The notes under the pieces were generated by a model. That model did no database searches and was not told where the DNA came from. It worked only from the letters and a program-made list of their open reading frames with translations. DNA of 41,225 nt from a virus (lineage: Duplodnaviria; Heunggongvirae; Uroviricota; Caudoviricetes), in the IMG/VR virus record IMGVR_UViG_2734482782_000005, positions 1 to 41,225 of that record, one strand, 5' to 3'. The translations under genes and the position numbers were made by a program. Shown piece by piece: positions 1-41,225 of this stretch. Every line of letters starts with the position of its first letter. The stretch's first letter is position 1.

Positions 1-1158
1 ATGCTCACCGTTAAGCAGATTGAAGCAGCAAAGCCGAAAGAAAAACCATACCGCCTTCTCGATGGTAATGGCCTGTACCTTTATGTCCCTGTATCCGGGA
101 AAAAGGTATGGCAGCTTCGCTACAAGATTGACGGTAAGGAGAAAATCCTGACCGTCGGAAAATATCCGCTTATGACTTTGCAGGAGGCAAGGGATAAGGC
201 ATGGACTGCGAGGAAAGACATCTCGGCTGGCATCGATCCGGTAAAGGCGAAAAAGGCTTCGTCTAACAACAATTCCTTTAGTGCGATTTACAAGGAATGG
301 TACGAGCACAAGAAGCAAGTCTGGTCAGTAGGCTATGCAACTGAACTTGCAAAAATGTTCGATGACGACATTTTACCTATCATCGGCGGCCTTGAAATTC
401 AGGATATTGAGCCGATGCAACTGCTGGAAGTAATCCGCAGATTTGAAGATCGCGGTGCAATGGAGCGAGCCAACAAAGCCCGCAGAAGATGCGGCGAGGT
501 TTTCCGTTACGCTATTGTCACTGGTAGGGCTAAATATAACCCGGCACCTGACCTTGCTGACGCCATGAAGGGATACCGCAAGAAGAACTTCCCGTTTTTA
601 CCTGCCGACCAGATCTCGGCATTCAACAAAGCACTTGCAACATTTTCAGGAAGTATCGTATCGCTCATTGCGACCAAAGTTTTACGCTACACAGCCCTAA
701 GAACAAAAGAGCTTCGTTCCATGCTATGGAAGAACGTCGATTTTGAAAACAGGATTATCACCATCGACGCCAGTGTGATGAAGGGACGCAAAATTCATGT
801 TGTCCCGATGTCAGACCAGGTGGTTGAACTTCTCACTACACTAAGCTCAATCACTAAACCAGTATCAGAGTTTGTTTTTTCCGGGCGCAACGATAAGAAG
901 AAGCCAATCTGCGAGAACGCGGTATTGCTTGTGATCAAACAAATCGGCTATGAAGGTCTGGAAAGCGGTCACGGATTCAGGCATGAATTCAGCACGATTA
1001 TGAACGAGCACGAATGGCCTGCTGATGCTATTGAAGTGCAACTGGCACATGCCAACGGCGGATCTGTACGCGGGATTTACAACCATGCTCAGTATCTCGA
1101 TAAGCGCAGAGAAATGATGCAGTGGTGGGCGGACTGGATTGATGAAAAGGTGGAGTGA
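1..1158 (+). CDS. intS: Tyrosine-recombinase prophage integrase (IntS-like)
   Basis: 385-aa ORF from ATG at 1; translation matches my recollection of E. coli KplE1/CPS-53 IntS; first gene inside a tRNA-associated prophage. Confidence 0.9.
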   Translation: MLTVKQIEAAKPKEKPYRLLDGNGLYLYVPVSGKKVWQLRYKIDGKEKILTVGKYPLMTLQEARDKAWTARKDISAGIDPVKAKKASSNNNSFSAIYKEWYEHKKQVWSVGYATELAKMFDDDILPIIGGLEIQDIEPMQLLEVIRRFEDRGAMERANKARRRCGEVFRYAIVTGRAKYNPAPDLADAMKGYRKKNFPFLPADQISAFNKALATFSGSIVSLIATKVLRYTALRTKELRSMLWKNVDFENRIITIDASVMKGRKIHVVPMSDQVVELLTTLSSITKPVSEFVFSGRNDKKKPICENAVLLVIKQIGYEGLESGHGFRHEFSTIMNEHEWPADAIEVQLAHANGGSVRGIYNHAQYLDKRREMMQWWADWIDEKVE

Positions 1159-1300
1159 TCCACCTTAACCACTATCGAAGAGCACAAAGCCTTGCAATCC
1201 AGTACAAAACTTTGTTTGTCTCATCAACCATAGCAAGTCATCGATCGATTGAGACTTGGATGATAGACTTCATGCCTTTGATTATTAGCTGATAGAAGAA

Positions 1301-2580: not shown

Positions 2581-4028
2581 TAAACATCAAAATAAAATTA
2601 TTAATTTTGTCCATCATTACTTCCGTTATTGTGTATGGTTATTGCTTATTTAACTTTAGTCTTTCTATAGATGGAGAGTTTTTTGATAATACCATTCACA
2701 CAATATCACTTGGCAGGTGGGGTCATGCCCTGCTTCATCAGTTTATATTACCAGAGCCATACACGCCTTTCTTTTCAGTATTATTATCTTTAGTTATTAT
2801 TGCCATTGCCGCATGGATGGCATCTATTTTTATAACAGAAAATACTCACGAGAGATTGGTTGTTATATTTGGTTTTTTTGCCACGCCGCAACTTGCTTAT
2901 CAATTGCAGTTTACTAACCAGGCAGACACCACAGCTATTGGTATTCTGTTGGTTGTTATATCCGCGATAACATCATTTAAAGCGATGGGTGGTGACAAAT
3001 CATTACTTAATGCAACCATATCTATTGTATGTCTTTGCTGTGCTATATCAATATACCAGTCATTTCTTGTTGTAGCGTTTAGTGTATATGTTGGATTCTT
3101 TATTCTGAGAACAAGAAATAAAGAAAACAATAAATATAAAACATCAATAATTAAATTCTCGTTATATAGCACAGTAATATTCATACTTTCACTTGCATTG
3201 TATTTTATGTTTTTCAAAATAATATTAATTTCGTATGGAGTTGATGATAAGACTGCGGAATATTCAAGATCACAAATGGCGTGGGGTTACAGACAAAATA
3301 GTTATATAATTAATTATCTGTATAACTACACAAAAAACTTTTTGCTTGGAGATACGTTTTTTGGGTTTAGGACGTATATTGTTGGAGTGATTGCTGTAGT
3401 GGTGGTTTTTTTTAACTTAGTATTCAAACGAAACCTAAATAATGCAACATCATGTTTAATGTCACTTGCTTTGGTATTATCTCCTTTAGTTCTTGTTTTT
3501 TATTTCGGAAATAACCAGATGCCACGCACTTACATTTCAATGAGCTTTGTAGTGGCATTTTCAGTTCTGATTATATTCAGAGGCTTGAGTTTAAAGAAAG
3601 AGTTTATTATTATCCCGGTCTTCATGTGCCTTTACTCTACTTATGCAGTATCGGCATTATTTTATTCTGATGATATTGCAAGATCTAGAGATGAGTTTAT
3701 ATCACGAAAGATAGTTTCTGATGCGCAGTCATTAATTAAGCATGGTGAGTCTAGTATTATAACACTTTACTTTCATGGACATATAAATAATGAAAACAGA
3801 TGGAAGTTACGAAACAGTGACACATTTGGAGTGTCTTTCTTTTCTTGGGATAATGGTAACCCTAGAAGAATATGTGCATATATTTCATATTACTCACTAG
3901 CAAAAGTTAGGTGTGAAAAGATATCATCTGGATATGACGCCAACATAGCAATGAAATTGCCGCCATACCCTTACATAGGATATATAAAAAACGAAAACGG
4001 AAAACTAATAATCAATCTTGGTGGGTAA
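2577..4028 (+). CDS. Serotype-specific O-antigen glucosyltransferase (GtrC-type polytopic membrane protein)
   Basis: 483-aa highly hydrophobic ORF, very AT-rich, third gene of gtr operon; ATG 2577 overlaps gtrB stop. Confidence 0.75.
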
Positions 4029-4030
4029 AA

Positions 4031-6064
4031 TTACATAGTTGTACCATCAGCGTATTTCCAAGCTTGAGCCAGTTGATCAAAAAAAACTGGCTTTTTAGTG
4101 TCTATGTTATAGATACTGTGACCGTACCCAAGAAGGTTCTTATTTATAGCGTTTATCTGTGAGGACGTTGCAGCAGTTGGAATGCCAGACCATGCAACAG
4201 TAATTAATATCCAATTACTTCCTGTCCATCTGATGTATGTCCCAGTATCAATTTGGTAGTATATGTGTCCTACAGGTATACCTGTAGGTCTAGCGGAAGA
4301 AAGACCAACAACCTGAAACCCTCTGTCATCAATCCACATTCCAGCCCCTACGTTGGTAATGAACCTCCCAAATGTCACATCATAGTAACTGAAACCGGGA
4401 ATCGCATACCCCGTAAAGCCAGATTTCCAAGAGGCAGAGTTATCAATTGATCTAACTCGAATTGACCTTTTTTCTGCTTCAGTTGCACTCGATGGTGACG
4501 ACGAAGATACCGTGTGAATGGAAACGATATCCACAAGCGTGTTTATTGGTTCTTCGCCACGGAAAATGTACTGGAATCCATCGTAATGACAACCCTGCGA
4601 GTCAATAAATGTCGCCCGAACCCTGTCAGGGCGTCCGTAGTACACGGTAAGCGCATTAGCTGACGCGTAGGCTTCGTTGTAATAGCGTGAACCCTTATCC
4701 TGAATTCTTAGGACGTTTTTATAGTCAACGCCAACGGCTATACCAGCGGTAGTGGTTGTGAACCTGAATTCGTTATCTGAAAAAATCAGGTCGCCCATTT
4801 GCCATGTAGGATTGTCAATTTCATCCTCTGCACCTTGCGCGGAAATCATTATTCCGATTGCAAATGTGCGGCAGCGGTTATCACTGACTTTGAATACATC
4901 TGATTTCTGGTCGTGTCTGTGCGTGAATAGAGCAAAACCATAACCGCCAACTAGGTCATTGTTGTGCAGGTTAACGCGGTGTGTGCCAATGAATTTAAAC
5001 GCGCGTTCAAACGTTGTTTCTGGTGTTTCAGTATTGTAATTGCGCATCACAACACTGTTGTTTTGTACGAATGCGGCGCGGCTAGTTCCTGTCCCATCGG
5101 CAAAACTTGATGCGTAGACTGCATGGCGATCAAGCGGTGCGCCGGCTACACCAAAAATACAGTTGTCGACAGAGATAATCTCACAATCGATAGGGACAGT
5201 ACCATAGCCATAAACACCTGCGCTCCAGTCCTGTGAAGCGAGTTGCTGGAATACGTTGGAGTAACTAGCGCCATAGCACAAGTGAATCTGTGCAGTCACA
5301 GTGTTAACACCAGCACTGATGTTGCGCATTTCTGATCCTTCATAATGCGCATAAACGTTGTTCACAGTAATGCCAACTACAGCACGCCCAACACCACGAA
5401 CTTTTCCGCCGTCAATTTTGACTTTAGTGGTGACGCTTTCGACGCCTGTTCCGTCAAACGTCAGGATCTGGTAGTAGGTGTTTACGTCTGTAGGTGTGAA
5501 GTTAACCCAACCGTCAGCCGTAGATTTGATTGTAATGTCTCTACCATTTAACGATCTGCGAATTGGTGTGTTTATATTCTGTACGTTATCAATGAGAACA
5601 TCAGCACTGTTCTCAAGAGCGGTATCAATAGCCTGTTCAAGACTTCCAGCCTCTGATGTTTTTACAAGACCGCGAACGCCTCCAATGTATGAAAAACCAA
5701 TAGAAGATGAAAGCCTTCCCTCCAGCTGGTCAGGATCGTACTTCAGCACATTCGGAAAATAGAACTGCTGCGCACCATACGCATCGTATACAGCCATTGA
5801 ATGGCCTTGCACAGTTACGAATTTGGCAATCTGTCCGTTATATACCGGGTAACCAGCAGCGTTAATGATGATTGGTTGCGATACAGGAACATGAGAGCCG
5901 TCTTCGTTCTCTACATAAACCTGAATCTGGTTTTCAGGATTTACAGGGTCAGTGTCAATTTTACCGATATAAATTTTGCCATTGGCTACGGCTTTAAAAG
6001 AACGCGCCATAGTGAATAGTTGCGAAGGCATGCTTACCACAACATTTGCGGTGATATCTGACAT
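4031..6064 (-). CDS. Tailspike protein with P22-type N-terminal head-binding domain and a distinct receptor-binding domain
   Basis: Internal ATG at 6064 gives [11 protein letters not shown]..., recalled P22 gp9 N-terminus; GGAG RBS upstream; the rest does not resemble P22 endorhamnosidase; ORF-track start at 6112 is an upstream extension. Confidence 0.85.
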
Positions 6065-28454: not shown

Positions 28455-29300
28455 TCACTCCTGCGCCCATGAAGGCATTTCAGTTTTCCCGTAATCTTTG
28501 GCGGCAAAGTTTTCCTGCATAGCTCGATGCTGCGGCCTCGGTTGAGATTTCCCCTTTGGAGTCTTGGGCTCAAAAATCCCCTGCCAACCACTGGCGATGC
28601 TCTGGTTTATAATTTCTTCAGGTGTATATCCCTTCTCCAGACTTCTGCTTAGAACGTTGATAGCCTGAGTGACGCTTTGCTTAGACTTGATCGACTTACC
28701 TATCTCCTTGCGATAAGTAACCCACGACAACCATGTTTCTGCTGATAACCAATCAGGCAACTCTGTTTCTAGCGGGTCGAACTTCTGAGAAACTTTTTTG
28801 GGGGATATAGGGGGTTTATTAATATTTTCTTTTGTCTTTAAAGAATGTCTTTTGTGTGTCTCTAACTTCGAGACATTGAGTGTCTCTAATTTGGAGACAT
28901 TTTTTGTCTCTAACTTCGAGACAAAGTTGCTAACTTGGAGACACTTGCTGAATTGCCACGCAGATACATCCATGTTTACACCGATTTGATTTCCATCCAT
29001 AAACAGGCAATTCATTGAAATCAGTTCTTTTTTAGCCTTGTTAACATTCTGCCTTGACAGTCCTGTTAACTGAGCAATTTGCTCATCGGCTATTCGATCT
29101 GTTTTCTTATTGAATCCAGATGTTTTCCGGACGTAGGCCAGCATAACTTTCAACTGGCGAGCAGTTAAATCGGCACTTGCGATAGCTTCCAGCAGATCGT
29201 TAGCGAATCTGGTGTAACCATCATCGATGTCAGCCACTCTTCGCTCCTGTTCGGCAAAGTTACCTCTGCCGAAGTTGAGTATTTTTGCTGTATTTGTCAT
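28455..29300 (-). CDS. O: Replication initiator O (lambda-type) containing the origin iterons
   Basis: 281 aa; N-terminus MTNTAKILNFGRGNFAEQERRVADIDDGY... matches recalled lambda O; internal VSKLET repeats encoded by iterons. Confidence 0.9.
   Translation of the reverse strand: MTNTAKILNFGRGNFAEQERRVADIDDGYTRFANDLLEAIASADLTARQLKVMLAYVRKTSGFNKKTDRIADEQIAQLTGLSRQNVNKAKKELISMNCLFMDGNQIGVNMDVSAWQFSKCLQVSNFVSKLETKNVSKLETLNVSKLETHKRHSLKTKENINKPPISPKKVSQKFDPLETELPDWLSAETWLSWVTYRKEIGKSIKSKQSVTQAINVLSRSLEKGYTPEEIINQSIASGWQGIFEPKTPKGKSQPRPQHRAMQENFAAKDYGKTEMPSWAQE
28800..28945. repeat. Lambda-type replication origin: four iterons with 24-bp periodicity plus adjacent AT-rich segment
   Basis: GTCTCTAA(C/T)TT(C/G)GAGACA copies starting 28858, 28882, 28906 and degenerate ~28929; AT-rich tract 28800-28855. 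Confidence 0.7.
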
Positions 29301-29309
29301 AATGACTCC

Positions 29310-29392
29310 TGTTGATAGATCCAGTAATGACCTCAGAACTCCATCTGGATTTGTTCAGAACGCTCGGTTGCCGCCGGGCGTTTTTTATTGGT
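29310..29392 (+). ncRNA. oop: OOP-like antisense RNA overlapping the 3' end of cII
   Basis: Plus-strand promoter TTGAGT (29275-29280), 17 bp, CATAAT (29298-29303); terminator CGCUCGG-UUGC-CGCCGGGCG + UUUUUUAUU at 29363-29392, as recalled for lambda to. Confidence 0.55.
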
Positions 29393-29629
29393 GAGTCCAT
29401 CAAGCGCATACTTAAAAGCCCTGCTAATCGGACTGATATCTGATGCCATTCCGAAAGCACACAAGACCGAGGCAATAAATCTCCAGTCCGTTCTGCTTAT
29501 CTTCGATTCATGACAGCCAATCATCTTTGCCAGACTGCGCTGGGTAAGTGTTGACAGGTTGATGAGTAAATCGGTTTCTGCGCGATCAACATCGCGCTGT
29601 GATAGTTTGCTGTAACTTGTTTGTTCCAT
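29333..29629 (-). CDS. cII: Transcriptional activator CII
   Basis: 98 aa; C-terminal ...LTNKKRPAATERSEQIQMEF matches recalled lambda CII. Confidence 0.9.
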   Translation of the reverse strand: MEQTSYSKLSQRDVDRAETDLLINLSTLTQRSLAKMIGCHESKISRTDWRFIASVLCAFGMASDISPISRAFKYALDGLTNKKRPAATERSEQIQMEF

Positions 29630-29693
29630 TTCTTACTATTTCCATAGGTAAATAATCACCAATACTCATCTTTCGATGAGCGATTAATTAGTT

Positions 29694-29728
29694 ACCGCGT
29701 TGTCGGCGGTGCAGATTGATAAAGAGCG
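29694..29728 (-). promoter_or_regulatory. nutR (boxA + boxB) between cro and cII
   Basis: Minus-strand CGCTCTTTATC (boxA-like) then hairpin ACCGC-CGACAAC-GCGGU (boxB, P22-type as recalled). Confidence 0.5.
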
Positions 29729-29738
29729 GATCCGCTTA

Positions 29739-29954
29739 TTAAGCGGCTTTGTGTTCCGGCGGGAACACGTCATCAAGACTGACTTTTGCGCCTAACTTGT
29801 TTAGGCACGCAACAAGAGCACGGCATGTTTTAAGGTCTGGGAAGCGACGACCAGATTCCCAATGTCCGATAGCTCCCTGTGTGCATCCAACCGCCTTAGC
29901 AAGTGTTGTTTGAGAGATATTCAGTGACTCTCTATATTTTCGTAGGTTGCTCAT
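29739..29954 (-). CDS. cro: Cro repressor (HTH)
   Basis: Internal ATG 29954 with GGAGGG RBS gives 71 aa MSNLRKYRESLNISQTTLAKAVGCTQGAIGHWESGRR...; divergent from cI. Confidence 0.85.
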   Translation of the reverse strand: MSNLRKYRESLNISQTTLAKAVGCTQGAIGHWESGRRFPDLKTCRALVACLNKLGAKVSLDDVFPPEHKAA

Positions 29955-30065
29955 ATGCCCTCCATAGTAACCATGAAACAATAATACGATATGTACTTTT
30001 GGAATGCAAACAAAAAATACATCTTGTGCATGGATGGTTTTAGTACATAGCGTAATAATAAGGAT
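29955..30065. promoter_or_regulatory. OR region: PR (minus) with overlapping operators, and PRM region
   Basis: Minus-strand PR: TTGCAT (plus 30004-30009), 17 bp, TATTAT (plus 29981-29986); operators 29983-29997 and 30042-56; weaker third at 30016-30030. Confidence 0.6.
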
Positions 30066-30725
30066 ATGAAAATGAAATGGTATGAACTGGCTAGATCCAG
30101 AATGAAAGAGCTCGGCATAACTCAAGAGAAGTTAGCTGAAGAGCTTGGTATGACGCAGGGTGGAATTGGTCACTGGTTGCGCGGATCTCGTCATCCATCT
30201 CTTGACGAGATTGGTGTGGTGTTTAAATACCTTGGTATTGATAACGTCTCATTCAACCACGACGGTACATTTTCACCTGCTGGCGAATACTCATCTGCCC
30301 CCGTTAAAAAACAATATGAGTACCCTGTTTTTTCTCATGTTCAGGCCGGGATGTTCTCGCCTGAGCTTAGAACCTTTACCAAAGGTGATGCGGAGAGATG
30401 GGTCAGCACAACCAAAAAAGCCAGTGATTGTGCGTTTTGGCTTGAAGTTGAAGGTAATTCCATGACCGCACCAACAGGATCCAAGCCAAGCTTTCCTGAC
30501 GGAATGTTAATTCTCGTTGACCCTGAGCAGGCTGTTGAGCCAGGAGATTTCTGCATAGCCAGACTTGGCGGTGACGAGTTTACCTTCAAGAAACTGATCA
30601 GGGATAGCGGTCAGGTGTTCCTACAACCACTAAACCCGCAATATCCAATGATCCCATGCAATGATAGCTGTTCCGTAGTAGGGAAAGTTATCGCCAGCCA
30701 GTGGCCTGAAGAGACATTTAGTTAA
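30066..30725 (+). CDS. cI: CI-type repressor with C-terminal S24 (LexA-like) autopeptidase domain
   Basis: 219 aa; N-terminal HTH; C-terminal ...GNSMTAPTG...FKKL...[12 protein letters not shown] resembles P22 C2. Confidence 0.9.
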
Positions 30726-30757
30726 CAGCCTCACCACTCTAAAACACACAACAATAA

Positions 30758-30786
30758 CCCGACCTTAGCGTCGGGTTTTCTTTTTC
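30758..30786 (+). terminator. Intrinsic terminator after cI
   Basis: CCCGAC-cuuagc-GUCGGG hairpin followed by UUUUCUUUUUC. Confidence 0.65.
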
Positions 30787-30850
30787 CAAAATATAAATCA
30801 ATAAAATACAAAGTGTTATAAAAAACCAACCACATTTAGAACATTTTGTA

Positions 30851-30879
30851 TTGACTCAATAAAGTACACATCGTACTAT
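30851..30879 (+). promoter_or_regulatory. PL promoter with overlapping operator
   Basis: TTGACT (30851-30856), 17-bp spacer, TACTAT (30874-30879); perfect palindrome AGTACacatcGTACT at 30863-30877. Confidence 0.6.
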
Positions 30880-30924
30880 TTAGCCATCAGCAGGAAGCTG
30901 GAAGCCAAACGGAACAGATTGGCA

Positions 30925-30959
30925 GGCTCTTTAACTTCGATGGGGCGCTGACAAAGCGC
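30925..30959 (+). promoter_or_regulatory. nutL (boxA + boxB)
   Basis: GGCTCTTTAAC boxA-like then GCGCUGACAAAGCGC hairpin identical to recalled P22 nutL boxB. Confidence 0.6.
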
Positions 30960-31078
30960 AAACAGATACCAAACGAGATGGGTTTGGCGGTGATGTGAAT
31001 TGCAGCTGCAACGACAGCAACCAGAAGATCAGCACCTGGCGCATCACCACCAAAGCCATTTCACATGAGGAAAATATC

Positions 31079-31387
31079 ATGACGGTAATCGTGTACGGAA
31101 AATCAACATTTGCAGGAAATGCCAAAACTCGCCGTCATGAGCGGCGCAGAAAGCTGGCTATCGAGCGTGATGCTATATGCAACATCATCGATTCGATCTT
31201 CGGCACAGACAGTGAGGAACCTGTTCAGGAAGCCCCGAGAAAGCGTTTAAGCATTTCTGAAAAAGCAATATCACTCGGCATCATTAGCAAATCAAATACA
31301 GATGCGAATAGCGGAAGCGTTTGTTTGCCTGAAGTTGCACTGTATGCTGCTGGTTACAGAAGGCAAAAACTAATTACAGCGAGGTAA
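31079..31387 (+). CDS. N: Antiterminator N (P22 gp24-type)
   Basis: ATG 31079 with GAGG RBS; MTVIVYGKSTFAGNAKTRRHERRRKLAIERD... arginine-rich motif; matches recalled P22 gp24. Confidence 0.85.
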   Translation: MTVIVYGKSTFAGNAKTRRHERRRKLAIERDAICNIIDSIFGTDSEEPVQEAPRKRLSISEKAISLGIISKSNTDANSGSVCLPEVALYAAGYRRQKLITAR

Positions 31388-31389
31388 AA

Positions 31390-31668
31390 ATGAAGCCTAG
31401 CATAACAATCAAGCCAGCGAGAGATAATAGCAGGAACCGCCGCAGAGAGGCCAGGAAGGCAGAAAGAGCAGAGAAGGAAAACAAGAGCCGGGAGGAGAGA
31501 AAGGCAGAGATTTTGGAAAAAGGAGGATTGGCTGCCGTGAGGGGTGAAAAAGCAGCTGAATTAGCAGTAGCTCACGAAAAGACAGAGATTGACAATAATT
31601 CTGGTGGAGATGCAATGTTTAAAGTTGTCAATCACGCCCATCAACGAAACCCCAAAAAGAAATGGTAA
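31390..31668 (+). CDS. Hypothetical basic/arginine-rich protein downstream of N
   Basis: 92-aa ORF, GAGG RBS, ATG 2 nt after N stop; no recognised domain. Confidence 0.5.
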   Translation: MKPSITIKPARDNSRNRRREARKAERAEKENKSREERKAEILEKGGLAAVRGEKAAELAVAHEKTEIDNNSGGDAMFKVVNHAHQRNPKKKW

Positions 31669-31670
31669 TC

Positions 31671-31694
31671 AACCCGTCCAAGACGGGTTTTTTA
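31671..31694 (+). terminator. Intrinsic terminator (tL1-like)
   Basis: CCCGUC-caa-GACGGG hairpin + UUUUUUAUU. Confidence 0.65.
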
Positions 31695-31725
31695 TTGCAA
31701 GCAAACCACTTATTTGAGATGAGAT

Positions 31726-32196
31726 ATGACAAAATCATGGAGCGTACCTTTTCCTGAATCAGAAACTGAACATGATGGAATGCCTGTTTTCTGGAGATTC
31801 CAGGCGACAGTTGAAGAAGATGGGATAAAAATATTCGCACTTCAATATATAGCTTTTCATCAGACAGAGCATTATGCATGGTTGGTTCCTGCGCATTGGA
31901 TTGTTGATTTTAAACCAGCACCAAATCAGTGGTTACAGGAATGGAAACAAAGGATAAATAGATATGCAATTAAGAAAGTAGCAAAAAATGCAGAAAGATC
32001 TTTTGCATTCCCGACGAAGAAACTTGCCATTGAAAGTTTATTGCGCCGGAAGAAATACCATTTGATGAGAATCAAACAAGATTTTGCTGTTGTATCAACT
32101 CTTGTTGATGGGATGAAGAATATTGATACATCAACACCAGATATTGAATATAACTTTGGACACAACCAAGAAACAGAAAATTGGGTGTTTTATTAG
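31726..32196 (+). CDS. Hypothetical 156-aa protein on an AT-rich insert between two terminators (unknown function)
   Basis: ATG 31726; clean ORF, Trp-rich, no TM segments; markedly AT-rich relative to flanking phage genes; no recognised family. Confidence 0.6.
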   Translation: MTKSWSVPFPESETEHDGMPVFWRFQATVEEDGIKIFALQYIAFHQTEHYAWLVPAHWIVDFKPAPNQWLQEWKQRINRYAIKKVAKNAERSFAFPTKKLAIESLLRRKKYHLMRIKQDFAVVSTLVDGMKNIDTSTPDIEYNFGHNQETENWVFY

Positions 32197-32298
32197 TACG
32201 AATAAGCACTGTGTATTCATTCCAACGAGTGAATACACGGAGCAATGTCGCTCGTAACTAAACAGGAGCCGACTTGTTCTGATTATTGGAAATCTTCT

Positions 32299-32326
32299 TT
32301 GCCCTCCTATGTGAGGGCAATTTTTT
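32299..32326 (+). terminator. Intrinsic terminator (tL2-like)
   Basis: UUGCCCUC-cuaugu-GAGGGCAA hairpin + UUUUUU. Confidence 0.7.
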
Positions 32327-32338
32327 GACGGAGGATAT

Positions 32339-33307
32339 ATGAGTGAAGTAACAGATTTAGTTGTTATTGAAAAAGCAAATGCAATGACTGTATTTCAGTC
32401 TGCCGACCAGATTGAAGAAATCCTTCAAAAGGTTGAACGTGAAGTTATGTCCTTTGTGCCTGATATCACAACGGCAAAGGGCAGAAAGGAGATCGCTTCT
32501 CTGGCGTATAAAGTTGCGCAGACGAAAACATATCTCGATGGTCTTGGCAAAGACCTTGTTGCTGAACTGAAGGAAATTCCAAAGCTAATTGATGCCAACC
32601 GCAAGACAGTGCGTGATCGACTTGATGAGCTGAAAGCCAAGGCGCGCCAGCCTCTTACTGATTATGAGGAAGAACAGGCGCGGATTAAAGCCGAAGAAGA
32701 AGCTAAGGCAGCAGCTGAAGCTCTCGCAAAGCAAATTGAGTCTGACCATGAAATAGCGATTTTGATGGATCGCGAATTTGACCGCCAAAGAGAAGAGGAA
32801 AGACTCAAAGCGGAGCAGGAAAAGCGAGAGCATGAAGAACGCTTAAAAAGAGAAGCTGAAGAGAAAGCCAGAGCAGAAGCCGAAGCAAAGGCAAAAGCCG
32901 AAATTGAAGCAGCAGCAAGGCGAGAAGCAGAAGCTAAGGCCGCAGCGGAACGTGCAGAGCGTGAACGCATTGAAGCCGAGCAACGAGCACAGCGCGAAGC
33001 AAAAGAGGCAGCAGAACGAGCTGAAAGAGAAAAGCAGGCGGCAATTGAAGCAGAACGCCGAAAAGCACAGGAGGAGGCTGAACGAATCCGGCGCGAGGCT
33101 GAAGCAAAAGAGCAAGCCAGAATAGCAGAAGAAAAAAGAATCAAGGACGAAGAAGAGCGTAGAGCAAAGGATAAAGCTCACCGGAAAGAAGTAAATAACA
33201 AAATACTTGCTGACCTTATCAAGGTTGGCGCATCAGAAGATGTTGCTAAAAATATCATAACAGCCATCGTAAAAGGCGAAGTATTCGCAACAAAAATAAC
33301 CTACTAA
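32339..33307 (+). CDS. Hypothetical coiled-coil protein with long E/A/K/R-rich repeat region
   Basis: 322-aa ORF, GGAGG RBS; central ~150 aa of KAEAE/RAERE-type heptad-like repeats flanked by globular ends. Confidence 0.6.
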   Translation: MSEVTDLVVIEKANAMTVFQSADQIEEILQKVEREVMSFVPDITTAKGRKEIASLAYKVAQTKTYLDGLGKDLVAELKEIPKLIDANRKTVRDRLDELKAKARQPLTDYEEEQARIKAEEEAKAAAEALAKQIESDHEIAILMDREFDRQREEERLKAEQEKREHEERLKREAEEKARAEAEAKAKAEIEAAARREAEAKAAAERAERERIEAEQRAQREAKEAAERAEREKQAAIEAERRKAQEEAERIRREAEAKEQARIAEEKRIKDEEERRAKDKAHRKEVNNKILADLIKVGASEDVAKNIITAIVKGEVFATKITY

Positions 33308-33330
33308 TAAACCAACATAAGGAACCACCC

Positions 33331-33462
33331 ATGATTTACGCAATCGCGGGAGGCGCTCGCATGGGTGCCTTCCAACTAAATGAATCTTTACTTGAACGAA
33401 TCACCCGTAAATTACGTGACGGATGGAAAAGAGTTGAGGTCTTATTATGCGCAATGAAATAG
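33331..33462 (+). CDS. cIII: CIII-like FtsH inhibitor
   Basis: Manually translated 43-aa ORF; ...ESLLERITRKLRDGWKR... matches recalled lambda CIII core; AGGAA RBS. Confidence 0.6.
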   Translation: MIYAIAGGARMGAFQLNESLLERITRKLRDGWKRVEVLLCAMK

Positions 33463-33599
33463 CCATCAATCACCAGATGCTTCGTGCGGCACAAAACAAA
33501 GCAGTAATAGCCCGATTTATTGGTGATTCCAAAATGTGGCTTGAAGCAAATAAAGCGATGAAATCAGCTATCAACCTTCCGTGGTATCGCAGGAAATGA
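33447..33599 (+). CDS. kil: Kil-like small protein (host division inhibitor)
   Basis: Manually translated 50-aa ORF; ...IARFIGDSKMWLEA... resembles recalled lambda Kil; overlaps cIII end. Confidence 0.45.
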   Translation: MRNEIAINHQMLRAAQNKAVIARFIGDSKMWLEANKAMKSAINLPWYRRK

Positions 33600-33754
33600 G
33601 TTTTACAGATAACTGGTCAGACGAAGAATTCATTCGTCAGATGAAAGATTTAATCGGTAACGAAGGAGATATTCATGTCACTTGCAACCACAGTGAAGGA
33701 GAGCAAGTTACAGAGACGCATGTACACGCAGAAAGCTCTCTGGTATCGCCATAA
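33596..33754 (+). CDS. Small hypothetical ORF
   Basis: Manually translated 52-aa ORF with ATGA overlap to kil. Confidence 0.3.
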   Translation: MSFTDNWSDEEFIRQMKDLIGNEGDIHVTCNHSEGEQVTETHVHAESSLVSP

Positions 33755-33853
33755 TGGTGACCGCGAAGGAATGCGGGTATGCCTTAATTTGTCCCGAGTC
33801 GAAGTATTAAATCAGCGTTATTTCCTTGGGCCGTGTCCATTCTGAGGTGAATT

Positions 33854-34561
33854 ATGGATTTGAACAAATTCGATGAGCCATTCAGCCCTGAAGATATCGA
33901 ATGGCGAATACAGCAAAGCGGTAAAACACGCGATGGCAAGGTGTGGGCTATGGTGCTGGCTTATGTCACGAACCGGGCAATCATGAAACGCCTGGACGAT
34001 GTTTGCGGCAAAGCAGGATGGCGCAATGAATACCGCGATATTCCCAACAACGGCGGCGTTGAATGCGGCATATCAATAAAGATTGATTCCGAATGGGTAA
34101 CCAAATGGGATGCTGCTGAAAACACGCAGGTAGAAGCCGTCAAAGGTGGTCGTTCCGGTGCAATGAAGCGCGCTGCCGTTCAGTGGGGAATCGGTCGGTA
34201 TCTGTATAACCTTGAGGAAGGTTTCGCACAAACATCTCTCGATAAAAAGCAGGGGTGGCACAGGGCAAAACTGAAGGATGGAACAGGATTTTACTGGTCC
34301 CCTCCATCGCTGCCGGGATGGGCAATGCCAGCATCTGGAAATCAACCATCACCAGAAAATACCAACCAGAAATCTCCATCGGTTGACTGCGAACAAATCC
34401 TGAAAGACTTCAGCGATTATGCGTCAACAGAAACTGACAAGAAAAAACTCATCGAGCGTTATCAGCGTGACTGGCAATTAATGGCTGGCAACGAGGAGGC
34501 GCAGGCTAAATGCGTTCAGGTAATGAACATCAGAGTTAACGAACTAAAACAGGCGGCATAA
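33854..34561 (+). CDS. Rad52-family single-strand annealing recombinase (Sak-like)
   Basis: 235 aa; ...GVECGISIKIDSEWVTKWDAAEN...GAMKRAAVQWGIGRYLYNLE... typical of Rad52/Sak; directly upstream of ssb. Confidence 0.7.
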   Translation: MDLNKFDEPFSPEDIEWRIQQSGKTRDGKVWAMVLAYVTNRAIMKRLDDVCGKAGWRNEYRDIPNNGGVECGISIKIDSEWVTKWDAAENTQVEAVKGGRSGAMKRAAVQWGIGRYLYNLEEGFAQTSLDKKQGWHRAKLKDGTGFYWSPPSLPGWAMPASGNQPSPENTNQKSPSVDCEQILKDFSDYASTETDKKKLIERYQRDWQLMAGNEEAQAKCVQVMNIRVNELKQAA

Positions 34562-35035
34562 ATGGCAAGCAGAGGCGTAAATAAGGTGATCATTATTGGT
34601 CGCCTTGGGCATGATCCAGAAATCAGATATTCACCATCAGGAACGGCATTTGCAAACCTTACAGTTGCTACGTCAGAACAATGGCGTGATAAGCAAACTG
34701 GAGAGCAAAAGGAGCAGACGGAGTGGCACCGCGTGGTAATGAGCGGGAAACTGGCAGAAATTGCCAGCGAATATCTGCGAAAAGGCTCTGAGGTTTATCT
34801 TGAAGGCAAATTGCGGACAAGAAAATGGCAGGATCAAAGCGGACAGGATCGGTTCACTACCGAAGTTATCGTGGGCGTTGGTGGAACCATGCAAATGCTT
34901 GGTGGCAAGCAAGGAGGAAATGAACAGTCTTCACCTCAGCGAAATAACGGTCAGCAACAAAGACAGCAACCTCAGCAGCAATGGAATCACAGCGAACCAC
35001 CTATGAACTTCGACGATTCGGATATTCCGTTCTAG
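34562..35035 (+). CDS. ssb: Single-stranded DNA-binding protein
   Basis: 157 aa; OB-fold N-terminus, G/Q-rich linker, acidic C-terminal tail ...DDSDIPF. Confidence 0.9.
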
Positions 35036-35044
35036 GAGCTGAAT

Positions 35045-35524
35045 ATGAAAATCTGCTCAAGATGCCATCAACAGAAGGAAGAAAGGGACTTTCAAATCAG
35101 AAGAGCATCCAGAGATGGATTAACTGCCGCTTGCCGGGCTTGCCTGGCTGAATACGACAAAGAGCGCGCGGGATTGCCACATCGAGTATCAGCAAGGAGA
35201 GAATATCAATCATCGGAACGCGGCAGAGAACGGTGTAACGCAGCCAAAAAGCGGTTCATTCAGAGCAACCCATGGAAAAGAAAAGCCCACATCATCGTGG
35301 GTAATTTTTTGCGCGACGGTAAGCTAATCCGACCACCACAATGTGAGTGCTGCGGATCAGAATGTAAACCACAGGCGCACCACTGCGACTACAGCAAACC
35401 AACCGATGTGATGTGGCTCTGCAAGTCATGTCATGTCGAGTGGCACAAACATAACAAACCTATCTACCCAGACGAGGAGACAGTAACTCTCCCTTTCCCT
35501 CGTCACGCTATTCACGCAATTTAA
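35045..35524 (+). CDS. HNH nuclease-domain protein
   Basis: 159 aa; C-terminal CECCG...AHHCDY...WLCKSCHVEWHKH HNH/zinc-finger motif. Confidence 0.6.
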   Translation: MKICSRCHQQKEERDFQIRRASRDGLTAACRACLAEYDKERAGLPHRVSARREYQSSERGRERCNAAKKRFIQSNPWKRKAHIIVGNFLRDGKLIRPPQCECCGSECKPQAHHCDYSKPTDVMWLCKSCHVEWHKHNKPIYPDEETVTLPFPRHAIHAI

Positions 35525-35532
35525 GGACTTAC

Positions 35533-36081
35533 ATGAATCACTTGATGGTTGACCTTGAAACAATGGGCAACGGGCCATACTCGCCAGTTATTTCTATTGG
35601 GGCGGTATTCTTTGACCCGAATACCGGAGAAACAGGAGAAGAGTTCTCGGTAAATATCTCGCTTGAGTCATCAATGCGATATCGAGCGCGTCCTGACGCT
35701 TCAACGATTTTATGGTGGATGGAACAGAGTGAAGAAGCCAGAAAATCGCTAACCAGCAACACTCAGGAGCTTTCAACGGCTCTTTCATGGTTATCTGAAT
35801 TCATCATAAAGAACGCTAACCACAAATTCGTTCAGGTTTGGGGGAATGGGGCATCATTTGACTGCGTTATTCTCCGCAACAGTTATTCGCTGACAGGGCA
35901 GCCAGTTCCGTGGCAGTGGTGGAATGACCGCGACGTAAGAACAATCGTCGAACTTGGGAAGGTAATAGGATTCGACCCTAAGCGAGATATGCCATTCAAA
36001 GGAACTCGCCACAACGCGCTTGATGATGCCATTCACCAAGCCAAATACGTTTCAGCGATCTGGAAAAAGTTAGCTAAATAA
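35533..36081 (+). CDS. DEDDh 3'-5' exonuclease (DnaQ-like fold)
   Basis: 182 aa; motifs VDLETMG, WGNGASFD, HNALDDA. Confidence 0.7.
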   Translation: MNHLMVDLETMGNGPYSPVISIGAVFFDPNTGETGEEFSVNISLESSMRYRARPDASTILWWMEQSEEARKSLTSNTQELSTALSWLSEFIIKNANHKFVQVWGNGASFDCVILRNSYSLTGQPVPWQWWNDRDVRTIVELGKVIGFDPKRDMPFKGTRHNALDDAIHQAKYVSAIWKKLAK

Positions 36082-36097
36082 TCAACAGGAGAAAACC

Positions 36098-36391
36098 ATG
36101 CCAGCGCCTCTGTATGGTGCGGACGACGCGCGCCGCTGTTCCGGCAATTCCGTATCGGAGGTGCTGGATAAATTCAGAAAAAACTACGATCGGATAATGT
36201 CGCTACCGCAGGAAACGAAAGAGGAAAAGGAATTTCGCCACTGCATATGGCTTGCAGAGAAAGAAGAACGCGAGCGAATTTACCAGACATCAATCCGACC
36301 ATTCCGCAAAGCCACATATACCCACTTCCCTGAAATTGACCCGCGCCTGCGTAATTACCGCTCACGCTATGGCGCTATCAGTAATGACTGA
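36098..36391 (+). CDS. Hypothetical early protein
   Basis: 97-aa ORF with AGGAG RBS. Confidence 0.5.
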
Positions 36392-36401
36392 GGAATTTAC
36401 C

Positions 36402-36566
36402 ATGAGAGGACTTGCATACAATCCCGGCATTCTTCCGGCAGAAATGATTATTCGCCAACGCGTAAAGCCAATGCCATCGAGAGAGGAATTGCTTAAGAGA
36501 AATTCTTTTCCATCAGTAAATCAAAACAAATATCTGAATGCAATGTGGCGGAGTGGGAAGAAATGA
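36402..36566 (+). CDS. Small hypothetical early protein
   Basis: 54-aa ORF from internal ATG 36402 with GAGG RBS; ORF-track start 36252 is an extension. Confidence 0.35.
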
Positions 36567-36994
36567 AACAAATGACACTAATTGAGATGGATGGATTTCT
36601 GAAAGGTAAATGCATCCCACGAGATTTAAAGGTTAACGAAACAAACGCTGAATATCTTGTCCGTAAGTTCGGTGAACTTGAATCAAAACTGGAAACGGCG
36701 TTGCGGGAGTGTCGTTCTGCTGGAATCACGATTGATAACCTTGAGGCTAAATGCGCGAAGATGGCTGCTGAAAATACATCGCTTAAGCAATCTGAGAAGG
36801 AATTTAATGACTTTTGTCGTGAGGAGTTTAGCGAATGGGAAGATGATGTTACTGAAACTCCAGTTACCGATGCTTTCCTGGCTGAAGTGCGGGCGCAGGG
36901 GGTAGAGATGTTTGCTGACCATCTGTTGTGCCCAGACCTTGATGACACTATCCGTGACTTTGCTGCCCAGCTTCGCAAAGGAGGCAACCAGTGA
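36563..36994 (+). CDS. Hypothetical acidic early protein
   Basis: ATG 36563 overlapping upstream stop (ATGA); 143 aa. Confidence 0.5.
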
Positions 36995-37536
36995 GTGTAA
37001 CGGTTGAAAAGATTGATGTGTTGTCATTCGTTATAACCGGTGCAGAGCGACTAGATCCGGTTCGAGTGATGATTGAAAACTACGAACCTGGTAAGGGAAG
37101 AATCACCATCACCTGCTACGGAAAAGCGTGGACTGCGGCTTGGTTTGCTATGGGCGGTGATGATGTGCAGACGTTCATTAAGCGGGTCAGCAACGAGTAT
37201 CTAATCGGCTATTTCGACCCTCAACTGCGAAGCACGGTCGACGATGACAACGATGCAAATCTGCTTTTCGTGAAGTCAGAAATCATAAAGTTACGAAGAG
37301 AGAGAGAAATCGACGCGGTACAGGCTCGCGAAATGTGGGACGAGTCGGAAAACGCCGATGACGTAAAAGAAAGCTGCTGTTGTTTCGGTGTCGGTAACAA
37401 ACTGCTGAATCTCTTTGGTGATGATCCGTGGTATGCAGGCTGGCCAACGGCACCAAACCCGAAATACCAGTATCTGGAACGCGTACTTAATGCAGTGAGA
37501 GACGGTCTTAAGCAAATAGAGAAGGTGGAACCATGA
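36991..37536 (+). CDS. Hypothetical early protein
   Basis: 181 aa; GTG start 36991 with AAGGAGG RBS 7 nt upstream. Confidence 0.5.
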   Translation: MSVTVEKIDVLSFVITGAERLDPVRVMIENYEPGKGRITITCYGKAWTAAWFAMGGDDVQTFIKRVSNEYLIGYFDPQLRSTVDDDNDANLLFVKSEIIKLRREREIDAVQAREMWDESENADDVKESCCCFGVGNKLLNLFGDDPWYAGWPTAPNPKYQYLERVLNAVRDGLKQIEKVEP

Positions 37537-37832
37537 CTGTATGTCTTATTGATAAACGTCGACGTGGGCAACAAATACCATCTGTTGAAATGCCGAATCA
37601 CACATGGTTTTGCGTACTTGATATCGATGGTATGGATACGTTGGTTGACACTCGTCATTACTGCGATACCGCAACAGCTACTCCGGCGAAAGCAAAGAAA
37701 ATGGCTGCTCTGATAGAAAACTGGACTCCACCTGATGGTTGGTGCAATGGGAATGATCGAGATTGGCATGAAAAAATGAAGGGCTATATCTGCGATTTTT
37801 TACGTAAATGCAACGGATTCAGGGTGATGTGA
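37533..37832 (+). CDS. Hypothetical Cys/Trp-rich early protein
   Basis: 99-aa ORF, ATG 37533 overlapping upstream stop. Confidence 0.5.
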   Translation: MTVCLIDKRRRGQQIPSVEMPNHTWFCVLDIDGMDTLVDTRHYCDTATATPAKAKKMAALIENWTPPDGWCNGNDRDWHEKMKGYICDFLRKCNGFRVM

Positions 37833-37833
37833 C

Positions 37834-38586
37834 ATGAGCAAGATTGACTATCAGGCACTGCGTGAAAAGGCAGAAAAAGCAACGTGTGGTGAGTGGTCGC
37901 TCGAATATGGAGAGGGCCGATTTGATGGTGATGATGCGCTAATTCATCGTGAAGTTGCTGGATATATTCCCATTTGCAGAATTGAAGGAGCGCATCCAGA
38001 AAGCGGTTTCGATGAAGATTTCCAAATAGAACAGCAGGCCAATGCTGAATTCATCGCCGCAGCCAATCCGGCTACCGTCTTGGCGCTGCTGGGCGAGCTG
38101 GAAACAGCAAAAAAGCGCATAGCAGAACTGGAAGCCGAACCTGTAAGCCAAACTTGCAAGTTGCCAGTTAATACACCTTGCCAAGATGCGCCAGCCCATA
38201 TCTGGCTGCAAACGGCTGGAGTATGGCCAGAAGATGGCGAGTTAAGCGAATTAACGTGGTGCAGCCACAATCAGCACCATGATGACACGCTATATGTTCG
38301 AGCTGACCTTGTGAATGGCAACTATCCGGTAACTCCGGATAGTTGGATAAGCTGTAGTGAGCGAATGCCGGGATATCCGATAGAGGTTCTTGTTGCATTT
38401 AAATCTGATGCCGATGGCGAGCCATGTCTTGATACGGGAGTTGCAATTCTATTTCCTGACGGAAAGTGGCGTGGGGGTGGAGTTTTTTATGTGATGAATG
38501 GGGATCGAAAATATCAATACAGAGAATGTGTTAGAGAAGTAACCCACTGGATGCCTCTACCAGAACCGCCGCAGGAGATGAAGTAA
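37834..38586 (+). CDS. Ead/Ea22-like early protein (possible DUF551-type C-terminal domain)
   Basis: 250 aa; N-terminal MSKIDYQALREKAEKATCGEWS...ANAEFIAAANPATVLALLGELE... typical of lambdoid Ead/Ea22-like proteins as recalled. Confidence 0.55.
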   Translation: MSKIDYQALREKAEKATCGEWSLEYGEGRFDGDDALIHREVAGYIPICRIEGAHPESGFDEDFQIEQQANAEFIAAANPATVLALLGELETAKKRIAELEAEPVSQTCKLPVNTPCQDAPAHIWLQTAGVWPEDGELSELTWCSHNQHHDDTLYVRADLVNGNYPVTPDSWISCSERMPGYPIEVLVAFKSDADGEPCLDTGVAILFPDGKWRGGGVFYVMNGDRKYQYRECVREVTHWMPLPEPPQEMK

Positions 38587-38864
38587 TGGACTCCTTTGCG
38601 AAATATACGATTATTGACTGGATTGCCTTCCTTCAGGTTTTGCTCATCTGGTTTTATATGGCTTACAGGAGTGGACAGTGGATTGTCAGTGTAGCCTGTA
38701 GCAAGGGATGGCGTTGGTGGAACAGAAAGAATAAAAAAGCACTGGCATTGGATTCGTTTTACGAAGCATTCAATCTTAACAGCCTTCAGCCTGGTTCTGT
38801 CATTGTAGTCACCACTCAAAGCGGCATGACCATTCAGATTCATAAACCAAAAGAGGAAAAATGA
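38586..38864 (+). CDS. Hypothetical small membrane protein
   Basis: 92-aa ORF with one hydrophobic segment; start overlaps upstream stop. Confidence 0.45.
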   Translation: MDSFAKYTIIDWIAFLQVLLIWFYMAYRSGQWIVSVACSKGWRWWNRKNKKALALDSFYEAFNLNSLQPGSVIVVTTQSGMTIQIHKPKEEK

Positions 38865-38950
38865 TGTGGCCTATATGTGTTAATTGCGGACGGATGTGCC
38901 TATCTGGATGGTGCCGAAGGTGCGACAAATGCACGAAGAAAAGACAATAA
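38861..38950 (+). CDS. Putative 29-aa cysteine-rich peptide (zinc-ribbon-like CxxC...CxxC)
   Basis: Manually translated MMWPICVNCGRMCLSGWCRRCDKCTKKRQ; ATGA overlap with upstream gene. Confidence 0.3.
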   Translation: MMWPICVNCGRMCLSGWCRRCDKCTKKRQ

Positions 38951-39022
38951 CAATCCTCGCACTCGCGGGGATTTCTTTTATCTGAACTCGCTACGGCGAG
39001 TTTTGTTTTATGGAGATGATAA

Positions 39023-39190
39023 ATGCACTTCCAAGTCACAGGTGAATGGAATGGAGAACCATTCAACAGAGTTATCGAAGCAGAGAACATCAACGACTGC
39101 TATGACCACTGGATGCTGTGGGCGCAGATAGCACATGCAGACGTAACCAATATTCGAATTGAAGAACTGAAAGAACACCAAGCCGTCTGA
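39023..39190 (+). CDS. Small hypothetical protein upstream of torI
   Basis: Manually translated 55-aa ORF (MHFQVTGEWNGEPFNRVIEAENINDCYDHWMLWAQIAHADVTNIRIEELKEHQAV), GGAG RBS, stop inside terminator hairpin. Confidence 0.4.
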   Translation: MHFQVTGEWNGEPFNRVIEAENINDCYDHWMLWAQIAHADVTNIRIEELKEHQAV

Positions 39191-39206
39191 TGGCGGTTTT
39201 TTATTG
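39183..39206 (+). terminator. Intrinsic terminator at end of early-left operon
   Basis: CCGUC-UGAU-GGCGG hairpin (one U.G) + UUUUUUAUU. Confidence 0.6.
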
Positions 39207-39212
39207 CCTGAT

Positions 39213-39228
39213 TTGCAGGTTCGATTCC
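39213..39228 (+). other. 16-nt tRNA T-arm-like fragment (TTGCAGGTTCGATTCC) upstream of torI
   Basis: Canonical T-stem/T-loop GCAGG-TTCGATT-CC; contiguous in tRNA register with the 3'-end core at 39522-39536. Confidence 0.5.
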
Positions 39229-39247
39229 CTATTCGGAGATAGCACTC

Positions 39248-39448
39248 ATGCAACACGAACTACAGCCTGATTCCCTGGTTGATTTGAAATTCATCATGGC
39301 TGATACTGGCTTCGGTAAAACCTTCATCTACGACCGTATTAAGTCCGGCGACCTGCCAAAAGCCAAAGTTATCCACGGGCGAGCAAGATGGTTATATCGT
39401 GACCATTGTGAATTCAAAAATAAGCTCTTAAGCCGCGCCAATGGGTAA
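39248..39448 (+). CDS. torI: Excisionase-like recombination directionality factor TorI
   Basis: 66 aa, MQHELQPDSLVDLKFIMADTGFGKTFIYDRIKSGDLPKAKVIHGRARWLYRDHCEFKNKLLSRANG, matches recalled E. coli TorI; GGAG RBS. Confidence 0.85.
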   Translation: MQHELQPDSLVDLKFIMADTGFGKTFIYDRIKSGDLPKAKVIHGRARWLYRDHCEFKNKLLSRANG

Positions 39449-39521
39449 AATAGCGGGTAAAATATTTCTCACATCTAAAAAATACCATTCCAATCAATCC
39501 CCTGCCGCTTCAAGTAGATGT

Positions 39522-39536
39522 CTGCAGGGGACACCA
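39522..39536 (+). other. Putative attR core: 15-nt copy of a tRNA 3' end (CTGCAGGGGACACCA)
   Basis: Sequence ends in CCA preceded by acceptor-stem-like AGGGGAC; matches recalled 3' end of E. coli argW and the KplE1 core repeat; host-like DNA follows. Confidence 0.6.
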
Positions 39537-39977
39537 GATACCCTTCAAACGAAATCTACCTTCACCCCGTAAAAGATGGGTTTGGCAGCACACTTGCCTT
39601 ATATCTACTCATTTTTACTGCAACAGGTTGAAATCTCAGCACTGTCAGAAAGCGCTGATGACTAAACAGCCCTGAGCCGGGCGATGTAACCATCACACAG
39701 AATCCTGATAGCGAAATATGGCGTGACTCGATACTTCACTCCGCAATGCATTCCTTGATGAATTCGCAGGACCGTGATACACGGGACAGGTCACTGAATG
39801 ACGACAATGTCCTGGAAATCAGCGAACCGCGCATCTGAAGTACATTTGAGCGACTGTACCAGAACATGAATGAGGCGTTTGGATTAGGCGATTATTAGCA
39901 GGGCTAAGCATTTTACTATTATTATTTTCCGGTTGAGGGATATAGAGCTATCGACAACAACCGGAAAAAGTTTACGT

Positions 39978-41225
39978 CTATATTGCTGAAGGTACAGGCG
40001 TTTCCATAACTATTTGCTCGCGTTTTTTACTCAAGAAGAAAATGCCAAATAGCAACATCAGGCAGACAATACCCGAAATTGCGAAGAAAACTGTTTGGTA
40101 GCCTGCGTGGTCAAAGAGTATCCCAGTCGGCGTTGAAAGCAGCACAATCCCAAGCGAACTGGCAATTTGAAAACCAATCAGAAAGATCGTCGACGACAGG
40201 CGCTTATCAAAGTTTGCCACGCTGTATTTGAAGACGGATATGACACAAAGTGGAACCTCAATGGCATGTAACAACTTCACTAATGAAATAATCCAGGGGT
40301 TAACGAACAGCGCGCAGGAAAGGATACGCAACGCCATAATCACAACTCCGATAAGTAATGCATTTTTTGGCCCTACCCGATTCACAAAGAAAGGAATAAT
40401 CGCCATGCACAGCGCTTCGAGTACCACCTGGAATGAGTTGAGATAACCATACAGGCGCGTTCCTACATCGTGTGATTCGAATAAACCTGAATAAAAGACA
40501 GGAAAAAGTTGTTGATCAAAAATGTTATAGAAAGACCACGTCCCCACAATAAATATGACGAAAACCCAGAAGTTTCGATCCTTGAAAACTGCGATAAAAT
40601 CCTCTTTTTTTACCCCTCCCGCATCTGCCGCTACGCACTGGTGATCCTTATCTTTAAAACGCATGTTGATCATCATAAATACAGCGCCAAATAGCGAGAC
40701 CAACCAGAAGTTGATATGGGGACTGATACTAAAAAATATGCCGGCAAAGAACGCGCCAATAGCATAGCCAAAAGATCCCCAGGCGCGCGCTGTTCCATAT
40801 TCGAAATGAAAATTTCGCGCCATTTTTTCGGTGAAGCTATCAAGCAAACCGCATCCCGCCAGATACCCCAAGCCAAAAAATAGCGCCCCCAGAATTAGAC
40901 CTACAGAAAAATTGCTTTGCAGTAACGGTTCATAAACGTAAATCATAAACGGTCCGGTCAAGACCAGGATGAAACTCATACACCAGATGAGCGGTTTCTT
41001 CAGACCGAGTTTATCCTGAACGATGCCGTAGAACATCATAAATAGAATGCTGGTAAACTGGTTGACCGAATAAAGTGTACCTAATTCCGTCCCTGTCAAC
41101 CCTAGATGTCCTTTCAGCCAAATAGCGTATAACGACCACCACAGCGACCAGGAAATAAAAAAGAGAAATGAGTAACTGGATGCAAAACGATAGTACGCAT
41201 TTCTGAATGGAATATTCAGTGCCAT
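39978..41225 (-). CDS. cscB: LacY-family oligosaccharide:H+ symporter, probably sucrose permease CscB
   Basis: 415-aa 12-TM MFS protein; collinear with LacY motifs (DKLGLKK, FDQQ); translation matches my recollection of E. coli CscB. Confidence 0.8.
   Translation of the reverse strand: MALNIPFRNAYYRFASSYSFLFFISWSLWWSLYAIWLKGHLGLTGTELGTLYSVNQFTSILFMMFYGIVQDKLGLKKPLIWCMSFILVLTGPFMIYVYEPLLQSNFSVGLILGALFFGLGYLAGCGLLDSFTEKMARNFHFEYGTARAWGSFGYAIGAFFAGIFFSISPHINFWLVSLFGAVFMMINMRFKDKDHQCVAADAGGVKKEDFIAVFKDRNFWVFVIFIVGTWSFYNIFDQQLFPVFYSGLFESHDVGTRLYGYLNSFQVVLEALCMAIIPFFVNRVGPKNALLIGVVIMALRILSCALFVNPWIISLVKLLHAIEVPLCVISVFKYSVANFDKRLSSTIFLIGFQIASSLGIVLLSTPTGILFDHAGYQTVFFAISGIVCLMLLFGIFFLSKKREQIVMETPVPSAI

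Follow-up and report, generated by a model that had tools for sequence, protein, structure and literature searches.

The DNA analysed here carries a prophage whose right end is followed by a permease gene on the opposite strand, and this arrangement raises the question of which chromosomal site the prophage occupies and what gene lies beside it. The window, meaning the whole stretch that was analysed, comprises the 41,225 nucleotides of IMG/VR record IMGVR_UViG_2734482782_000005. Its first three bases are the intS start codon and its last three the cscB ATG on the minus strand, indicating that it was cut on gene boundaries. The genes cscK, cscA and cscR as well as argW and attL lie outside the window, having been observed solely in contigs that are identical to its two ends. 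The original prediction had placed the insertion in the argW locus of a csc-positive Escherichia strain, and this was borne out on both counts, by argW near intS and by csc genes on the source contig. It is virtually certain that the right end represents the attR site of a prophage of the Sf6/HK620/KplE1 type integrated at argW in a csc-type Escherichia coli, with cscB adjoining, and no observation speaks against this reading. The features of both ends are listed in Table 1.

Table 1. Features at the two ends of the window (positions are those of the window).
Feature	Position	Strand	Description	Basis or remark
intS	1..1158	+	Tyrosine integrase, 385 aa, at the opposite (attL) prophage end	Named IntS; Pfam Phage_integrase and Arm-DNA-bind_3
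torI/xis	39248..39448	+	Excisionase (recombination directionality factor), 66 aa, last prophage gene before attR	TORI_ECOLI cluster
attR core CTGCAGGGGACACCA	39522..39536	+	15 bp	Identical to the argW 3' end
Spacer from attR to the cscB stop	39537..39977		441 bp of csc-type-specific chromosomal DNA	No intact gene
Decayed DUF4942 gene fragment	39603..39889	+	About 285 bp, approximately aa 38-151 of 281	In-frame stop; internal deletion of about 54 bp shifting the frame
Hairpin	39925..39968	-	10 nt after the cscB stop, 11-bp outer stem	Without U tract
cscB	39978..41225	-	Complete 415-aa protein, predicted sucrose:H+ symporter of the LacY/oligosaccharide:H+ symporter family	ORF, profiles, DNA identity, neighbours

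Integration of the prophage at argW

A search with ARAGORN detected no tRNA gene in the entire window. The left end is extended by a contig that matches window positions 1-4158 with 0 mismatches and has the gene order mlaA-yfdC-argW-intS, the end of the gene for tRNA-Arg(CCU), i.e. argW, being found 161 bp upstream of the intS start codon. Since argW adjoins intS in this contig, argW is the integration locus.

The same site is recognisable at the right end. The 15-bp core CTGCAGGGGACACCA, present in a single copy in the window, constitutes the last 15 nt of tRNA-Arg(CCU) both in genomes with an unoccupied site and in the contig identical to the left end, where this second copy of the core forms the end of an intact argW beside the integrase. 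Matches of the window to the free phages HF4s, N7, Kapi1, Sf6 and IME10 extend through torI and end at position 39536, and the match to the KplE1/CPS-53 prophage of E. coli K-12 also ends there, after which the K-12 sequence continues into its dsdC flank. Genomes that are csc-positive and prophage-free match the window from position 39522 onward. The three sites can thus be written as argW followed by CTGCAGGGGACACCA and TTTATC for attL, CTGCAGGGGACACCA followed by GATACC for attR, and argW followed by CTGCAGGGGACACCA and GATACC for attB. The prophage is integrated at argW and its right boundary is position 39536; the prediction that an attR core would be followed by host DNA therefore held, as the core equals the argW 3' end and the breakpoints of phages and empty sites coincide with it.

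The direct repeat found here has 15 bp, compared with the published 16 bp (16-17 bp for KplE1-type systems). The phages Sf6, HK620, KplE1 and Kapi1 have in common the 16-bp att site ATGGTGTCCCCTGCAG in argW (PMC8787464), and the core of the window corresponds to 15 of those 16 nt. A G follows the CCA of the tRNA (position 39537) in csc-type attB and attR, as against a T in the phage's arm at attL and in K-12; this difference between the csc-type flank and the phage in the base after ACCA shortens the repeat by one base pair. The argW gene is also used by some Stx phages (PMC10132054). Two phage records, ON470594.1 and ON470589.1, run past the core into the csc spacer as far as window position 39800, and these appear to be prophage-derived sequences that retain host flank.

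The relatives of the prophage are evident from its last gene as well as from its virion genes. The TorI protein is identical to that of K-12, the gene is annotated as torI in both K-12 and the O104:H4 strain, and its counterparts in phages HF4s, N7 and Kapi1 are annotated as excisionase. For the virion genes, the identity to Sf6, HK620 and vB_EcoP-683R2 is 95-97%. As in KplE1 (CPS-53), Sf6, HK620 and Kapi1, an IntS-type integrase gene is located at attL, the xis gene at attR, and the core is that of argW. The right end is best explained as attR of a P22-like prophage of the Sf6/HK620/KplE1 type. The differences from these relatives concern the gtrC-like gene and the early region, which are mosaic here, and the chromosomal side of attR, which is dsdC in K-12 and in MP1 (the host of Kapi1) but the csc spacer in the present case.

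Beside intS, a gtrA/gtrB/gtrC-like module for O-antigen glucosylation occupies positions 1301-4028 of the plus strand, encoding proteins of 120, 306 and 483 aa. The domains recognised in this module, in the contig identical to window positions 1-4158, are GtrA, GT2 and Glucos_trans_II. The gtrC-like part is rare: the stretch 1098-4100 was matched by only one complete genome (LR-28), with 98% identity and without the intS part.

By analogy with tyrosine integrases in general and with KplE1, Sf6 and HK620 in particular (PMC8787464), IntS would have recombined attP with attB; the integration duplicated the 15-bp core. The phage arm would have restored the tRNA's 3' end, leaving argW intact at attL, just to the left of the window, while the other core copy precedes the DNA found directly downstream of argW in prophage-free csc-positive strains, i.e. 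the spacer and then cscB. TorI together with IntS would presumably reverse the reaction and excise the prophage. The cscB gene itself is untouched by the integration and converges on torI.

The permease CscB and the csc locus

The ATG of the permease gene forms the final three bases of the window, so that the open reading frame is complete. Its product scored 643.5 bits against Pfam LacY_symp, covering positions 2-412 of the 413 of the model and thus its full length, and 594 bits, again over the full length, against the NCBIfam model TIGR00882 for oligosaccharide MFS transporters, which has a cut-off of 220. The gene is 100% identical at the DNA level to the E. coli chromosomal loci encoding WP_001197025.1, including that of O104:H4. 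RefSeq names this protein 'cscB: sucrose MFS transporter' (isolate NRZ96606, beside cscK, cscA and cscR), and UniRef gives the exact sequence the name 'Anion symport for sucrose'. The published forward primer with which the csc cluster of E. coli W was cloned (PMC6599523) matches exactly at 39937-39963, which may serve as a partial stand-in for a comparison of CscB with that of E. coli W. On the grounds of its sequence the permease is CscB, and the original reading of a complete minus-strand member of the LacY family as CscB was confirmed by the DNA identity to a named cscB, by the profiles and by the csc neighbours.

The nearest relative of CscB with a solved structure is LacY (PDB 1PV6 and 2Y5Y), with an E-value of 1e-63 over residues 11-399. 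The two proteins belong to a common fold family, and in the alignment the charged residues by which LacY couples H+ and binds its sugar count as conserved in CscB: D129, R147, R300, K317, H320 and E323 are positioned opposite E126, R144, R302, K319, H322 and E325 of LacY, all being retained except for the glutamate E126, which is replaced by aspartate. Further differences from LacY are the replacement of D237 and K358 by asparagine and serine, respectively, as well as the locus and the substrate. The position corresponding to LacY E269 is occupied by V267, the closest acidic residue being E270, opposite LacY N272 and three residues off. Residue 353 of CscB is the wild-type glutamine; the Q353H variant has been described as faster (PMC6599523).

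The sequence beyond the window was found in the source contig JUCB01000005.1 (GCA_000797605.1; 594,660 bp), which was reached via a protein from the right arm of the prophage and agrees with window positions 28834-41225 with 0 mismatches over 12392 bp. In this contig cscB is followed by cscK, cscA, cscR, a C-terminal fragment of DsdX, dsdA and emrY, so that a look past the window for cscK and cscA, as had been proposed together with the prediction, was positive. The product of cscK is a PfkB fructokinase (NF006957 equivalog, 508 bits), that of cscA a GH32 sucrose hydrolase (TIGR01322, 480 bits) and that of cscR a LacI-family repressor; all four genes including cscB are intact, full-length open reading frames. 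The DsdX fragment, a 72-aa open reading frame, matches only positions 374-445 of the 445 of the DsdX model, and the D-serine ammonia-lyase gene dsdA that follows it is full-length, while dsdC is absent from the source contig. The locus is the csc-type variant of the argW-dsdA variable region, in which dsdC is missing, dsdX is truncated and dsdA is kept, cscB-cscK, cscA and cscR occupying the position of dsdC and of the greater part of dsdX.

This organisation is that of the csc regulon in strains EC3132, W, O157:H7 EDL933 and O104:H4, which have the order argW, spacer, cscB, cscK, cscA, cscR, truncated dsdX and dsdA. In O104:H4 2011C-3493 the gene for WP_001197025.1 is followed by a PfkB kinase gene, cscA, a LacI-family regulator, a dsdX pseudogene, dsdA, emrYK and evgA. 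In contrast to those strains, a full-length prophage is present in argW here, and cscB is consequently found about 40 kb from the tRNA gene instead of 441 bp; otherwise nothing of substance differs. The presence of csc at argW, a recombination hot spot, in replacement of dsdCX is known from E. coli (PMC4366372, PMC7486766, PMC11251922), and the genotype with dsdC lost and dsdX truncated has been associated with sensitivity to D-serine and with phylogroups B1, D and E (PMC4366372, PMC11251922). The arrangement is therefore an ordinary one, both csc at argW and the use of argW by Sf6, HK620, KplE1 and Kapi1 being already known. Its main value lies in annotation: the integration site is argW, the right boundary lies at 39536, and the host is a csc-type E. 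coli without dsdC and with a truncated dsdX.

A comparison of positions 39537-41225 with E. coli genomes, likewise proposed at the outset, showed these 1689 bp to be 100% identical to many chromosomes. The cscB flank was found in 2653 of 5426 complete E. coli genomes (approximately 49%), amounting to 2656 genomic matches, all of them chromosomal, with a median of one and a maximum of two per genome. The cscB allele of the window is the common one, occurring in more than 1000 contigs. The junction of torI, attR and csc was present in 377 complete genomes, counted where at least 80% of positions 39400-39977 was covered. The same torI-attR-cscB junction also occurs in O104:H4 2011C-3493, the strain of the 2011 outbreak, whose prophage is interrupted by IS1, contains pseudogenes and looks degraded. 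In NZ_CP019256.1 (strain 13TMH22), IS1203 of the IS3 family is inserted in the stretch equivalent to 39537-41225.

Judging from homology and from the literature (PMC11251922, PMC6599523), CscB would import sucrose together with a proton, sucrose/H+ symport being known for the proteins of EC3132 and W. Inside the cell, CscA would act as invertase and split the sucrose, CscK would phosphorylate the fructose, and CscR would repress the csc genes, as reported in the same studies (PMC11251922, PMC6599523).

That the permease might instead be LacY, RafB or another paralogue of the LacY family, at a locus unrelated to csc, is suggested by its membership of the LacY_symp family and by the fact that NF007077, a generic 'galactoside permease' model, accepts it as well. 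The identity to LacY, however, amounts to only 33% over 385 aligned positions, the identical RefSeq protein bears the name cscB, and its matches are exclusively chromosomal, typically at one place per genome. The synteny of cscK, cscA, cscR and dsdA on the source contig refutes this reading, which was rejected as having hardly any chance of being correct. Equally negligible is the probability that the junction is an assembly artefact in which two unrelated contigs, one with the prophage and one with csc, were fused. The draft status of the source assembly would allow for this, but the junction recurs in the complete genomes counted above, and its breakpoints coincide exactly with the att core. 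Of a different weight is the idea that the strain is csc-positive in genotype only and grows on sucrose slowly or not at all. Growth that depends on csc is typically slow, and five csc+ scr- isolates failed to grow on this sugar despite having no visible genetic defect (PMC11251922); moreover, the window encodes the wild-type Q353 and not the faster Q353H form. Against this, the four csc genes are intact and full-length and the cscB allele is a common one, and we consider a purely genotypic csc-positive state the less probable case, though one with a real share of the probability.

The spacer between attR and cscB and its DUF4942 relic

The DNA between the att core and the stop codon of cscB had been described in the original prediction as some 440 bp of non-coding, host-like DNA. 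This description stood, as the 441 bp are chromosomal and contain no intact gene, with the correction that the spacer is specific to csc-type strains and carries the remains of a DUF4942 gene. In csc-positive genomes without the prophage, an identical sequence comes directly after argW, and RefSeq genomes of identical sequence have no intact gene annotated in it. A search of positions 39100-40100 against Rfam at E<=1 returned only RAGATH-25, a chance match with 15 bits as compared with a gathering score of 49, and a scan of the spacer for promoters and terminators gave nothing convincing, apart from a weak 5-bp stem at 39584.

The relic was recognised with tblastn, using an intact 281-aa DUF4942 protein as query. 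Residues 76-151 aligned to 39662-39889 (76 aa, 51% identical, E 2e-19) across an in-frame stop, while residues 38-65 aligned to 39603-39686 in a different frame; according to the DNA alignment, the two pieces are separated by the deletion of about 54 bp. Intact DUF4942 genes at other places in E. coli chromosomes have a DNA identity of approximately 73-77% to positions 39690-39881. One such gene stands at the end of a CP4-type island in strain R8, in the company of an antirestriction gene, a JAB-domain gene, a YeeU-family antitoxin gene (cbeA type), cbtA, DUF5983 and DUF957. RefSeq annotates 90 bp of the region as a DUF4942 pseudogene; the corresponding 30-aa open reading frame gave no match in Pfam, the homology being seen with blastn and tblastn against the intact gene. 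Judged by this homology, most of the spacer is the relic of an island gene and not part of the core backbone.

The prediction had implied ordinary host backbone, conserved and without a separate history, and this would account for a spacer that has neither an intact open reading frame matching a family nor an Rfam match and that is 100% conserved in many genomes. K-12 and other strains of the dsdC type, however, have none of the spacer DNA, their similarity to the window ending with the core's last base, and some 285 bp are homologous to DUF4942 of CP4-type islands; this interpretation is largely refuted and very unlikely. The csc genes might instead lie in the stump of an older integrative island of the CP4 type that used the argW att site. 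They would then have arrived as cargo by site-specific integration and not by homologous replacement of dsdCX, and the present phages would re-use the site. This tentative proposal is put forward because the DUF4942 relic starts about 65 bp from the end of the tRNA, in the orientation expected for such an island, and because csc-type and dsd-type sequences part precisely at the final base of the att core; it is nevertheless the less likely history. A second, degenerate argW 3' end beyond cscR, as a possible mark of the distal limit of such an island, was sought in a csc-positive genome, allowing at most 3 mismatches over 23 nt, and only the tRNA copy was found. No new biology is involved here, the DUF4942 relic being a minor clue to the way in which csc might originally have come to argW.

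On the distal side of cscB, a 96-nt stretch at the hairpin listed in Table 1 folds with a predicted energy of -19.9 kcal/mol (z = -3.2 relative to shuffled sequences). The consensus terminator scan did not report this hairpin, which may be an atypical terminator. In NZ_CM176496.1 (strain Eco_23-3571), the match to the spacer is limited to 45 bp (39856-39900), at positions 1440092-1440136 and under an annotation as P22-like gp4; this sequence suggests a deletion that fused a prophage remnant to the csc flank.
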